64,000 nucleotides of DNA from a virus. Taxonomy: Duplodnaviria; Caudoviricetes. Below are positions 27,917 through 31,261 of this stretch, piece by piece (position 1 is the first letter of the stretch; every line of letters begins with the position of its first letter). The DNA lies in IMG/VR virus record IMGVR_UViG_3300021400_003144. One strand, 5' to 3'. Under the pieces are notes generated by a model. It worked only from the letters and a program-made list of their open reading frames with translations. It had not been told where the DNA came from and ran no database searches. The position numbers and the translations under genes are program-made.

Positions 27917-28254
27917 AGTGAACCCTTGCAATAGGGATTGAATCTGTACCATACATTTCATTTACTTGCTCTATAGAGTGAACCCTTGCAATAGGGATTG
28001 AATTTTATAATAATGCTCTATGCATTCATTATAATTTAGTGAACCCTTACAATAGGGATTGAATTTATCACCGTTATCGTCGCTGTCGTAATCCTTGGAG
28101 TGAACCCTTGTAATAGGGATTGAATTGTTAGAAAACAAATTATTGACTGTTAATTATTAAAAGTGAACCCTTGTAAATAGGGATTGGATTTATTTTCTAA
28201 GTTTTTAAATATGCTATTAGGTCTATAAGCGAATCCTTGTGATAGGGATTGAAT
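27917..28254 (+). CRISPR. CRISPR array 5 (6 repeats, 5 spacers), best conserved
   Basis: AGTGAACCCTTGCAATAGGGATTGAAT (27 nt) at 27917 and 27977, with variants at 28038, 28099, 28162 and 28228. Spacers are 33-38 nt. Degeneracy increases toward the 3' end. Confidence 0.95.
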
Positions 28255-28313
28255 AGAAAAGAACTTGAGTCTAACAGGGTATTAAAAACAATTAGTGAGG
28301 TACAAATTTAATT

Positions 28314-29081
28314 ATGCATTATAATGAGGTAGATTCAGAGAATACAGACATTCCAGAGTCTGTCAGGCAAGAAAGAAGAATACGAAAAGCAAATGAAGAA
28401 AGACCATTAAGACCTGAGGAAGTATCAGAAGCTTATGAAACTGGTAATTTTAACAAGCTGGCTGATAGATATGAAGAGCTAGGGTATGCTAGTCTTGCAA
28501 AGCAATACAGGAACAAAAATAAAGAAGAAAGCAAAAAGAAAAGTAATAAGCTACTAAAATTCTGTATATTATTCATAATTACATTTATAATTGCACTATT
28601 TTCAATTTATATGTATTCAGAATACAAGGTAAGTATTATAGAAATTGCAATAAGTTCATTGCTTATATCATTTGTATTATATATGTCATTTTTTTCTGAG
28701 CATGTACATATACTAATTATAATCAAGCATTGTCTTGTGTTTATTGGTTCAATACTTATTATTGGTTGCATTTTTATATCTGTTATAGCATGCTTTGTGG
28801 ATATTAAAATACCTGTAAATAAGGTACAACAAGAATCAGTACAAGAGGTTACACAGGAGACAGAAGTAGAGACAGAGGCAGAACTATCAATATGGATAAC
28901 TACTACACGTGTAAAAGTAAGGACTGAACCCAATGTAAATTGTACTGTACTTGGTGTATTAGATGCAGGTGTACAAGTAGATTATAAAGGAGATGCTAAT
29001 GCAGATTGGATAATCATAAATTATAATGGACAAGAGGCTTATGTAGCTAAACAGTACATTGAAGTAGTAAAGGGTGATTAG
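28314..29081 (+). CDS. Membrane protein with C-terminal SH3b domain
   Basis: 3 TM segments, then TTTRVKVRTEPN..VLGVL..G...WIIINYNGQEAYVAKQYI. Confidence 0.85.
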   Translation: MHYNEVDSENTDIPESVRQERRIRKANEERPLRPEEVSEAYETGNFNKLADRYEELGYASLAKQYRNKNKEESKKKSNKLLKFCILFIITFIIALFSIYMYSEYKVSIIEIAISSLLISFVLYMSFFSEHVHILIIIKHCLVFIGSILIIGCIFISVIACFVDIKIPVNKVQQESVQEVTQETEVETEAELSIWITTTRVKVRTEPNVNCTVLGVLDAGVQVDYKGDANADWIIINYNGQEAYVAKQYIEVVKGD

Positions 29082-29323
29082 AATAATACATGGGTATAGA
29101 CATATCAAAAGAAAGAAGAGAAAATAAAAGATAATCAAATATTAAAAGCTTATTGGGGTATTTACAGGTATGATTGAAACTGAGAATCATTTAAATGAAG
29201 AACATGACGAGATAATTGGTTTAGATTTATATAAAGTAGAGTTGTTATATGAATAGGAGCATAACAAATATGCAGTTAAAAGGAATAAAGATTCTAAAGG
29301 AAACATAGTTGGATACAAAGATG

Positions 29324-29412
29324 AGAGAACCCTTGCAATAGGGATTGAATTTCTGTAAGATATTTATAAATTTTTTCTAATGTTGAGTGAACCCTTGCAA
29401 TAGGGATTGATA
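29324..29412 (+). CRISPR. CRISPR mini-array 6 (2 repeats, 1 spacer)
   Basis: GAACCCTTGCAATAGGGATTGA at 29327 and 29389. Confidence 0.9.
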
Positions 29413-29436
29413 AAATAACAAATTTAAGGGGGGCAT

Positions 29437-29895
29437 ATGTTAAACATAAAGGTTGTTGAAAATAAAAAGAACATTAAAAGTTTAGGACTAGACCTTATAG
29501 ATGATTGTGAAGTAGGTTTTAAATATATAAATGGAATTTCAGAAAAATCAAAAATTCTGATGAAGTTGATTGATAAAGCAGATTATGTAGATGATACAAC
29601 TATTACTGACAGATTTGGAGATAAGACTTTTATAGATAATTTAAGTACAGGATGTAAAACAGCGATATGCGTTGTAGAGTATCCAGATAAGTGGATAAAT
29701 ACAATGGAGTGTGGGTTAAATGCTTTAAATGCAATATTAACCACATGTGATGAAGGTAATATAATACTACTTGATACAGGTTGGGATATTCCAAAGACAT
29801 TTGGAAGTGAAATAACTGTCAGTATAAACGGAAAGATATTCAATAAAATATCTGACCTGAATGAATATATAAGGGATGGTGAATATGATGTTTAA
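29437..29895 (+). CDS. DUF4869-like protein
   Basis: IDKA..., LSTGCKTA and ECGxNAL pattern. Confidence 0.7.
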   Translation: MLNIKVVENKKNIKSLGLDLIDDCEVGFKYINGISEKSKILMKLIDKADYVDDTTITDRFGDKTFIDNLSTGCKTAICVVEYPDKWINTMECGLNALNAILTTCDEGNIILLDTGWDIPKTFGSEITVSINGKIFNKISDLNEYIRDGEYDV

Positions 29896-30274
29896 TGCAG
29901 GAAGAAAACTGTTTAACATAGTTATAAAGTTAAATCCAGGGATATATACTTTTGATGATGAATCAGGTACCGGAAAAACTAGATTATACAAGGAGCTAAA
30001 AGATGATTCATCCTTATATAATAGAGTGCTAGCTGTAAATCCTTCTGATTTACGATTAGGTGTAGATGTAAATACACTGATAAAAAACGGGAAATATGAA
30101 TTGATTGTGTTAGATAGATACGACAGGATGGATGGCATAGATAAGGATATATTGATAAATGCCTCAAAGCATTCAATTATTCTGATAGATTGTAAAGACC
30201 CAAGTGATTGGGTATATGGAACCGATTTTTGCAGGATACAGATGCATAGGAATGGGATAGAGGTTTATAAATGA
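29876..30274 (+). CDS. Small P-loop NTPase-like protein
   Basis: DESGTGKT Walker A-like and LIVLDR Walker B-like motifs. Confidence 0.65.
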   Translation: MVNMMFNAGRKLFNIVIKLNPGIYTFDDESGTGKTRLYKELKDDSSLYNRVLAVNPSDLRLGVDVNTLIKNGKYELIVLDRYDRMDGIDKDILINASKHSIILIDCKDPSDWVYGTDFCRIQMHRNGIEVYK

Positions 30275-31131
30275 TATATTTATTTGAAGATAAATACTCA
30301 GTTTTAACATCTCATTTTATTCATAAATCTTACAGTGATAAAACTACAGTATCTTTTGATTTTGATGAATTGAGGCTTAAATCTAGAGGGGATACAGTAT
30401 ATTATACTTTGGTTAATGAGTTAATCAAACCAGAGTATAAAGATTTACATAAGATAATATTCACATCTGGAAATTCTGAACTGATACCTTGTGCAAATGC
30501 AATACTAATTTCTAATGAGCTTAAGGATGAGGAGATAGCTATTTTCTTTGACCTTTCAATTAGGAATAAAGTTATTTATAAATTATATAGGGATATCACT
30601 GACTTATATAATAACAATAGTAAAAGAGTGGTACCAGTACCTATAATATGTAGTGAGTATAATACTTTAAAAGCATTTGATAAACTTAAACTAAATAGCA
30701 AATACACTAAAGATTTGGAAACAGTACTAGAATTAGATATTTATTTTAAAACTCAACTATATGAAAAAGAGAAGGACAGAATAAAAACATTTGAAAAATT
30801 CTGTAAAAGAGTAGCTTACTATATAGAGTCTGAGCAAGCCACTGATTCAGACAAATATAATTTTGAGATATTTTTCAGAAAAGGTGATATAGTACATGAC
30901 AATATTTTCTGGTGCTGGGCAAAGAGATACCTAGAAAATTGGTATGTATTACCAGGTAGAATAAGCAATGTGATGTATAAAACTAAAGCAATAGACTTAG
31001 ATTACATAAATAAGAATCATAAATTATTAGTTGAAAAATATAATGAAGCAACAATAAGATACTTGGAGTATTTAAAAGAATCTAAGCCAGAATTAGTTAA
31101 TAACTATAGAGTAGTCACATCTATGATTTAA
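30271..31131 (+). CDS. Hypothetical protein, possible TOPRIM-like fold
   Basis: YLFED start, SGNxxL, IFFD and ICSEY. Overlaps the previous gene by ATGA-type coupling. The fold call is weak. Confidence 0.5.
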   Translation: MIYLFEDKYSVLTSHFIHKSYSDKTTVSFDFDELRLKSRGDTVYYTLVNELIKPEYKDLHKIIFTSGNSELIPCANAILISNELKDEEIAIFFDLSIRNKVIYKLYRDITDLYNNNSKRVVPVPIICSEYNTLKAFDKLKLNSKYTKDLETVLELDIYFKTQLYEKEKDRIKTFEKFCKRVAYYIESEQATDSDKYNFEIFFRKGDIVHDNIFWCWAKRYLENWYVLPGRISNVMYKTKAIDLDYINKNHKLLVEKYNEATIRYLEYLKESKPELVNNYRVVTSMI

Positions 31132-31140
31132 TATTGGTTA

Positions 31141-31261
31141 GAACCCTTGTAATGGGGATTGAATACTTAAATATTATTTTGTTGATACTTATTATCTAGA
31201 ACTTATCTACTATAATAAAAACATAGATGATAAGTTAAAGAACCCTAGTTGGGGATTGTAT
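31141..31261 (+). CRISPR. CRISPR mini-array 7 (2 repeats, 75-nt insert with hairpin)
   Basis: GAACCCTTGTAATGGGGATTGAAT at 31141 and GAACCCTAGTTGGGGATTGTA at 31240. Confidence 0.75.

Follow-up and report, generated by a model that had tools for sequence, protein, structure and literature searches.

Integrons comprise an IntI integrase, an attI site and attC cassettes, which lie in series on one strand, are mostly promoterless and are each bounded by a short palindromic site. In synthetic biology, engineered Cas6/Csy4 sites cut operon RNAs into separate messages. The usual view of a CRISPR array is of a self-contained library of guides. The CRISPR systems of huge phages have compact arrays with a median of six repeats (Al-Shayeb et al. 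2020, PMC7162821), and virus-borne mini-arrays or single repeat units use the host's repeats together with the host's Cas proteins or act as decoys (review PMC11656645). Recombination between CRISPR arrays is known as module exchange in E. coli (PMC3903273); spacer loss within arrays (PMC11472070), Tn7-like transposons aimed at CRISPR repeats (PMC11837452) and prophage integration in Streptococcus pyogenes arrays (bioRxiv 10.1101/2020.10.09.333658) have also been described. Here we analyzed a 64-kb window (64,000 nucleotides of IMG/VR record IMGVR_UViG_3300021400_003144) of a 282,865-bp sheep-rumen metagenome scaffold (ERZ28612966, scaffold_29), a phage-like giant element in which short CRISPR arrays alternate with blocks of protein-coding genes. 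On balance, we favor the view that the window holds a variable accessory-gene zone (~2.9–31.8 kb) built around the element's own CRISPR arrays, in which arrays and genes would share one RNA, be cut by Cas6e and exchange blocks through repeat homology.

The initial annotation had described the studied stretch (27917–31261) as a series of array, SH3b gene, array, three-gene operon, array and terminator. This order was confirmed, and all of the coordinates given for it checked out (Table 1). The junctions running from array A5 through the SH3b gene, a gene fragment and mini-array A6 to the operon start were matched base for base by two other assemblies, NCBI AUXO010818664.1 (100% identity to the window over 23729–29703) and a Logan contig of SRR873599 (100% identity over 26211–29671), and are therefore not the artefact of one assembler.

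The repeat unit is 27 nt long (consensus AGTGAACCCTTGCAATAGGGATTGAAT) and consists of a short hairpin (CCCT, 6-nt loop, AGGG) followed by ATTGAAT. The window contains 30 repeats in eight clusters, all on the + strand and all within a 29-kb zone (2883–31805); no copy was found on the − strand of the window, and nearly all of its long open reading frames (ORFs) also run on the + strand. The 23-nt repeat core, with up to three mismatches allowed, gave 11 matches compared to zero in 100 shuffles. A predicted 3–8-bp hairpin is kept by every window repeat except that at 7883, including all cargo-adjacent repeats of the studied stretch, and most repeats carry an ATTGAAT-like tail (variants ATTGAT, ATTGTAT and ATTAAAT); the hairpin-plus-handle form suited to Cas6e is found in all but one. 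In A5 (repeat starts 27917, 27977, 28038, 28099, 28162 and 28228), a 4–8-bp hairpin and an AUUGAAU-like tail are present in six of six repeats, with AUUGGAU in the fifth. Sequence comparison indicates that the stem co-varies among relatives (CCCT/AGGG versus CCCC/GGGG); a covariation count from the output of the repeat finder would be circular, as stem bases were among its requirements. As in CRISPR arrays generally, where direct repeats of 23–47 nt alternate with unique spacers about as long, repeats of 27–28 nt are separated by spacers of 28–43 nt and no spacer is duplicated. A7 is an exception, its middle unit being decayed and its second spacer short. No leader precedes A5, A6 or A7, which begin 27, 0 and 6 nt, respectively, after coding or remnant sequence (for A5, the stop at 27889). 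The missing leader sets the window apart from typical arrays and is no bar to counting these clusters as CRISPR arrays.

The element encodes cognate machinery for these repeats, with genes for a processing nuclease and an effector in one operon. By its domain matches, the operon resembles a compact type III-A-like system with a type I-E-style Cas6e. The same repeat family lies behind homologous cas operons in eight related loci (L054 and L057–L063; seven distinct arrangements). A virus that lacks matching cas genes and carries repeats matching a host system is not what we found: the element has its own cas operon, and the repeat pattern gave only 43 single matches, all chance-like, among 185,579 species genomes. 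The cas region follows the same design as the A5–A7 zone, namely promoter (3278), cas genes, A2, a 235-aa gene (8169–8876), A3 and terminator. Several RNA-repair genes accompany this cas operon. A kinase–phosphatase–RNA ligase fusion (AAA_33, Metallophos and RNA_lig_T4_1) is encoded near it at window 9194–11431, and in L058, L060 and L061 (2.6–9.6-kb upstream part of each locus) cas10 is immediately preceded by genes for RtcB, a Tpt1-like PTS_2-RNA protein and a Metallophos protein.

Two contigs, L066 (SRR31077501) and L067 (ERZ28655797), were found by searching with the N-terminal part of the SH3b protein; these and L054 (ERZ28612969) are from three different public samples, L054 being from the same biosample as the window. 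The order in L066 is array, terminator, DUF4869 gene, 147-aa gene and lone repeat with terminator, followed by the P-loop gene, a P-loop paralogue, the SH3b gene, a 66-aa gene, terminator, leader and array. The order in L067 is array, terminator, 394-aa gene, 187-aa gene, leader, three-repeat mini-array, terminators and SH3b gene. The only window genes shared with these contigs are the array-flanked ones. The SH3b homologues are 79–86% identical in nucleotides in two segments (79–84% in L066), the P-loop gene is 77% identical in amino acids and 78% in nucleotides to L066 1649–2038 (nucleotides over window 29881–30275), and the DUF4869-like protein is 40% identical to the 166-aa protein of a further contig, L065, and to the 160-aa protein of L066. 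At the level of gene order, the comparison shows that arrays and accessory blocks are interleaved across related elements, with the same blocks in different orders. The three-gene operon also occurs as a free-standing unit: L065 encodes proteins of 166, 129 and 260 aa, each 30–40% identical to the corresponding protein of the window. This module follows a hairpin-plus-T-run and a TATAAT box (read by eye), has a nitroreductase gene as its neighbor and shows no repeats in its vicinity. L064 encodes 130- and 265-aa proteins in the same gene order (the P-loop protein is 34–38% identical to its L064 and L065 counterparts). Gene content and order thus show the operon to be a portable block.

Two events in this comparison end at repeats. 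The first concerns the decayed fragment noticed in the initial annotation, which proved to be a genuine N-terminal remnant of the L067 394-aa gene, held in the 242-nt gap that precedes A6. Its matching stretch (29263–29323) shares 80% nucleotide identity with that gene over 65 nt by blastn, and tblastn gave 18/38 identities (E 2e-5 against a 441-nt window piece and 0.006 against the whole window). A tblastx search with 29082–29323 had no match in the loci compared before L067; the match came with L067. Homology stops no more than about 3 nt from the start of repeat 29324, placing the cut at 29323/29324. The second event is a difference between the two contigs themselves: where L067 has its three-repeat mini-array, L066 has just one repeat, which keeps the last 10 nt of the leader and lies between flanks 93% identical to those in L067. 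By its sequence, this is a simple collapse of one repeat onto another. Alignment thus shows a minimum of one truncation and one collapse with endpoints at repeats.

A third comparison was provided by L054, whose cas operon is the nearest relative of that in the window (Cas10 51% and Csm3 75% identity). There, cas6e is followed by cas2, one unbroken array with 20 or more repeats, then a terminator and homologues of window 34362–34760 (61%) and 35070–35465 (75%), so that its single array stands in the place of ~26 kb of arrays and genes in the window. Six further related loci, in five distinct arrangements, likewise have one array behind cas6e or cas1. In L062 (Cas10 41% identity), a 70-aa ORF (14710–14922) was observed in a 370-nt gap inside the array.

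Repeat variants tie the clusters of the window to different partners. The A3 repeats are the CCCTTTTATAGGG variant, which is also the last repeat of A2; the A6 repeats are A5 repeats 1–2, apart from one change in the first and a 3′ end altered to GAT in the second; and A4 and A7 carry the long-loop/short-loop pair (ATGGGG and GTTGGGG) that is used in exactly this form by the L066 and L067 arrays. Because variants are shared in this way, the zone looks like a mosaic built by exchange between array-bearing elements. It had been proposed that arrays 5–7 are one interrupted array; since their variants differ and each cluster has a degenerate last repeat of its own, they are better explained by different histories, and that proposal is not supported. 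A6 was also considered as a duplicate of A5 repeats 1–2 and rejected, as the likeness of its spacer to the first A5 spacer (18/33) is within the shuffled range (null median of maximum 0.58).

Further variation was observed among the repeats. The two forms, long-loop TTGTAATGGGG and short-loop TCGTTGGGG, differ by 2 nt in the loop and alternate irregularly; mixed-form arrays are L066 1–450 and 4240–4450, L067 7075–7590 and window 18754–18837 and 31138–31261, and the short-loop form is the last repeat in both A4 and A7 of the window. A rare weak-stem variant (GTGACATGG or GTGATATGG) with a GATTGAT tail occurs in A2 repeats 3–4 (7883–7962) and in the middle repeat of the L067 mini-array (~9700), and its presence in both appears to be a further sign of shared array ancestry across backbones.

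We weighed these observations against ordinary scatter, in which independent mini-arrays and eroding array ends happen to lie in intergenic gaps of a densely packed genome with genes on one strand, the genes between them are ordinary neighbors and the repeats have no part in gene turnover or expression. That each cluster has its own degenerate last repeat and its own variant fits this account, as do the unremarkable composition of the cargo, the gene-edge position of most homology breakpoints and the several compact arrays known from huge phages (PMC7162821). We nevertheless judge scatter unlikely, because the same cargo is found beside same-family arrays in three otherwise unrelated backbones and in different orders, the remnant ends at a repeat edge, cargo-adjacent repeats keep their hairpin and handle, and all 30 repeats fall in a 29-kb zone that matches one L054 array.

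The suggestion that repeats serve as cassette boundaries therefore stood in part. The proposed synteny comparison yielded positive cases in the cut remnant at 29324, the reordered cargo beside same-family arrays in L066 and L067 and the single array of L054, while several other breakpoints lie at gene edges or behind terminators. The accompanying likeness to integron attC sites did not survive. Site-specific capture, in which a recombinase would use the repeats as attC-type sites, shares with the locus only the serial site–cassette–site–cassette layout on one strand, and is the least credible account considered here, being largely refuted. No tyrosine or serine recombinase, whether integrase, resolvase or intI-type, was detected in the array zone by Pfam (most ORFs from 244 to 33443 and precomputed matches over 18.3–39 kb); the L067 integrase and L066 resolvase had no tblastn match in the window. 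The boundaries are 27-nt hairpins with spacers rather than attC sites (imperfect palindromes of ~57–141 bp), a block is not flanked by two copies of one repeat, and breakpoints are not confined to repeats.

The repeats flanking a block differ at 4–5 positions, which also bears on whether the cargo could consist of kilobase-sized 'spacers', that is, very long DNA pasted between repeats by a Cas1–Cas2 integrase. Cas2 or Cas1–Cas2 is present in relatives (L054 and L058), and one block ends in a sliced gene. In the window, however, neither cas1 nor cas2 was found alongside the cas operon or in the rest of the array zone, all cargo blocks are whole same-strand genes with ribosome-binding sites, and relatives that have Cas1–Cas2 show normal 30–40-nt spacers, making this origin very improbable. 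Nor do the cargo blocks contain transposase or integrase genes or element ends.

The transcriptional layout was examined by consensus scans of the sequence, on which all promoter, terminator and co-transcription calls rest. Seven of the eight clusters start 6–43 nt past a stop codon (the exception is A6), arrays adjoin ORFs at 6–59 nt, and genes behind clusters start 20–75 nt past the last repeat, each with a ribosome-binding site. The tight spacing reported for the three-gene operon was borne out: its ATG (29437) is 25 nt past the repeat end at 29411, and the next repeat starts at 31138, 6 nt past the stop at 31131, with its core (31141) 9–10 nt past that stop. Similarly, gene 8169 starts 20 nt past the end of A2. 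On the + strand, clean terminators (hairpin plus U-run) were predicted only at 3226, 9057, 15422, 16286, 31278, 32661 and ~33480, and no strong intrinsic terminator was predicted within 16320–31278. As none is predicted inside it, A4–A7 and ~15 kb of genes form one predicted unit (16.4–31.3 kb), and guides and genes probably share one transcript, in line with the earlier suggestion.

These predictions would be compatible with the following sequence of events. The stretch from the methylase gene to A7 (16.4–31.3 kb) would be transcribed as one long RNA. Cas6e would then cut at the base of every repeat hairpin to supply guides for the Csm complex and, as a by-product, free the SH3b and three-gene messages, each with a 7–8-nt repeat-derived 5′ handle and a 3′ hairpin. 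On the DNA level, the 27-nt repeats would provide shared homology through which co-infecting elements of the same CRISPR type could exchange, delete or collapse blocks, by ordinary homologous or short-homology recombination and with no dedicated integrase. The likeliest mechanism is repeat-guided homologous recombination together with ordinary gene-level mosaicism. A broader proposal, which we put forward tentatively as possible rather than probable, is that in this family of rumen mobile elements the array acts as a gene-capture platform: repeats would be portable handles with which co-infecting elements of one CRISPR type trade accessory, probably conflict-related, blocks, and in the giant element Cas6e would also cut the long operon RNA into guides and separate cargo messages, giving an integron-like outcome without an integrase.

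Cleavage might also have been selected for its effect on the cargo. Cas6e would then set the ends of cargo messages and tie cargo expression to the state of the CRISPR system; the 3′ hairpin, when bound, would stabilize the message, and Csm on the 5′ handle could cover the ribosome-binding site 10–25 nt away. The tight spacing (25 and 20 nt ahead of the genes at 29437 and 8169, respectively, and 6 nt between the stop codon and the repeat at 31138), the intact hairpins and the lack of predicted terminators or consensus promoters between units are what such RNA punctuation would call for. The coupling is not conserved, however, as the cargo of L066 and L067 has its own promoter regions and terminators toward the arrays; folding of the sequence around A6 and the beginning of the operon gave no gain in stability over shuffles (z −0.23); and a limited literature search found no natural precedent. 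A selected role of Cas6e cutting in cargo expression thus has a low probability. Pairing of the C-rich arm of the repeat with the operon ribosome-binding site was seen in one fold and discarded, being no better than in shuffles.

The arrays of L004, L066 and L067 share a leader of ~90 nt. Its copies (L004 1300–1372; L067 6990–7074 and 9560–9637; L066 4160–4243) end in a GGAG/GGGG box, resembling a ribosome-binding site, and a mini-ORF of 5–6 codons; in three of these four copies, the stop of the mini-ORF overlaps the first repeat or lies directly before it. The leader is not recognizable before A5, although a weaker look-alike lies at 27893–27916, and the window's arrays are also without insulating terminators. 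The terminators behind arrays in L066 (454–483 and ~4463–4497) and L067 (~7600–7635) begin with AAAGAACC, the 5′ bases of the repeat, and may be repeat-derived.

Several points weigh against the reading that we favor. The L066 and L067 arrays have a conserved leader of their own and are walled off from cargo by terminators, so the mixing of guides and messages is a derived feature of the giant element; transcript sharing may thus be peculiar to the window's element and incidental or functionless. Weak promoter-like sites are present inside the 242-nt gap, and both co-transcription and Cas6e cleavage are read from consensus scans. Only one breakpoint is at a repeat edge (29323/29324); those between the window and L066 are at gene starts or stops, and that between L066 and L067 is ~75 nt behind a repeat, after a terminator. 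Spacers had no significant match to the window or related loci, and none was common between elements. The codon-usage comparison that had been suggested for cargo and core genes revealed no difference except in the P-loop gene, which has a low synonymous-codon score (z −3.3, 132 codons); cargo GC content and codon usage are otherwise those of the rest of the window, with no compositional sign of recent arrival. L054 is distant (51–75% protein identity), too distant for its single array to prove that the zone arose by insertions into one array. Finally, the comparison spans 64 kb of the 282,865-bp element. Overall, the evolutionary evidence from sequence comparison is good, with no dedicated mechanism in view.

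Database searches returned few relatives of the locus. Among GenBank phages, 27800–31900 had no nucleotide match and neither Csm3 nor the SH3b protein had a tblastn match; no IMG/VR relative was recovered by the repeat pattern, the 286-aa protein, Cas10 alone or a Cas10 alignment; and no Rfam family reached the gathering threshold. The 286-aa protein of the three-gene cargo has no near relative. An exhaustive HMMER search identified 65 distant homologues, of a family whose members are ~250 aa long and which has no Pfam model; conserved residues include E6, D7, D94, N99, E129, E175, C178, K179 and several cysteines, and in both contigs examined the family member is encoded behind a P-loop protein of ~130 aa. 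Searches for this protein gave no Pfam, PADLOC, PHROG or PDB sequence match, no usable ESM Atlas match and nothing at E ≤ 0.001 in Foldseek. Its AlphaFold model is confident (predicted local distance difference test score 88.6), and the best VIA-align matches were designed P-loop folds (Z 7.5). The Toprim regions of OLD and Gabija (GajA) followed weakly at Z 5.3–5.9, tied with many P-loop and Rossmann-like folds. With respect to an OLD/Gabija-type pair of ABC-type ATPase and Toprim nuclease, the three-gene cargo had no PADLOC, Pfam or PDB sequence match and only weak fold matches; such a defence function is possible.

Two further observations concern the window itself. The reverse complement of the first A7 spacer (31164–31200) matches 29 of 37 bases at 31335–31371, 135 nt downstream, across the −35 side of the strong predicted promoter at 31350–31378; this is the best self-match among window spacers, the others ranging from 0.58 to 0.77, and for an RNA-targeting system the target would exist solely in terminator read-through RNA. 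Between A3 and A4, two adjacent paralogous genes (13081–14561) have BspA-type leucine-rich repeat/DUF285 matches.

Table 1 Coordinates of arrays, genes and predicted signals in the window.
Feature	Position	Strand	Remarks
Array A1, 6 repeats	2883–3226	+	At 3′ end of preceding operon; then terminator 3226–3257 and cas promoter at 3278
cas10 (HD domain), csm2, csm3, csm4, cas6e	3350–7717	+	TIGR02578, TIGR01870, TIGR02582, TIGR01903, TIGR01907, PF08798
Array A2, 7 repeats	7761–8148	+	Behind cas operon
Array A3, 3 repeats	8900–9049	+	After gene 8169–8876; terminator 9057–9112 follows
Mini-array A4	18754–18837	+	Between methylase gene and acetyltransferase gene; same predicted long unit as A5–A7
Array A5, six 27–28-nt repeats, five unique 33–38-nt spacers	27917–28254	+	Last two repeats degenerate
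Cargo 1: 255-aa membrane protein with C-terminal SH3b domain	28314–29081	+	PF08239, E 1.6e-10
Pseudogene remnant	29257–29323	+	First ~20 codons of gene intact in L067 (7760–8944, 394 aa); start codon lost
Mini-array A6, two repeats (29324, 29386), one 35-nt spacer	29324–29411	+	
Cargo 2, gene 1: 152-aa DUF4869-like protein	29437–29895	+	PF16163, E 2.3e-4, below Pfam cut-off
Cargo 2, gene 2: 132-aa small P-loop protein	29876–30274	+	Walker A-like GTGKT read from translation
Cargo 2, gene 3: 286-aa protein	30271–31131	+	Unnamed family, alpha/beta fold
Mini-array A7	31138–31261	+	First repeat intact (ATGGGG variant); middle unit near 31195 decayed; last repeat (31237) short-loop, GTTGGGG
Strong intrinsic terminator (predicted)	31278–31315	+	15 pairs; −24 kcal/mol, z −6.0; closes predicted unit
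Consensus-like promoter of next unit (predicted)	31350–31378	+	11 of 12, TG-extended
Lone repeat	31779–31805	+	Between 110-aa gene (31424–31756) and 252-aa membrane gene (31881–32639)

If the favored reading is true, CRISPR repeats gain a second role, organizing gene exchange between mobile elements and, in one lineage, the cutting of operon RNA. The zone would then represent a route for the spread of phage accessory or defence genes and a natural counterpart to engineered Cas6 sites between cistrons. In our limited literature search, no report was found of protein-coding blocks bounded by a phage's own CRISPR arrays or of natural Cas6 cutting between cistrons. With integrons the locus shares serial same-strand blocks bounded by short palindromic sites; it differs in its sites, which are CRISPR repeats accompanied by genuine spacers, and in its breakpoints, which occur elsewhere too, and the search of the zone revealed no integrase. 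The resemblance to engineered Cas6/Csy4 sites is that a Cas6-type hairpin between cistrons would separate messages, those sites being laboratory designs.

Like the huge phages with CRISPR systems (PMC7162821), the element is very large and phage-like, encodes cas genes but no adaptation genes and has several short arrays. Its arrays differ in being embedded in operons of protein-coding genes, with gene blocks between them; we did not find that work describing arrays that delimit exchangeable cargo. As with virus-borne mini-arrays (PMC11656645), lone repeats and arrays of one or two spacers are dispersed in a viral genome, whereas the element of the window encodes a matching Cas6e and effector and its units border gene blocks. 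As in E. coli module exchange (PMC3903273) and spacer deletions (PMC11472070), repeats provide the homology, here in the L067/L066 collapse; the difference is that whole protein-coding blocks seem to be exchanged here across mobile-element backbones. With mobile elements that insert into arrays (PMC11837452; bioRxiv 10.1101/2020.10.09.333658), the locus has in common foreign genes between array halves, while its blocks consist of one to three accessory genes without transposase, integrase or element ends. Phage-borne CRISPR arrays and recombination at repeats are thus known ingredients, and their combination in this element is a variant of these.

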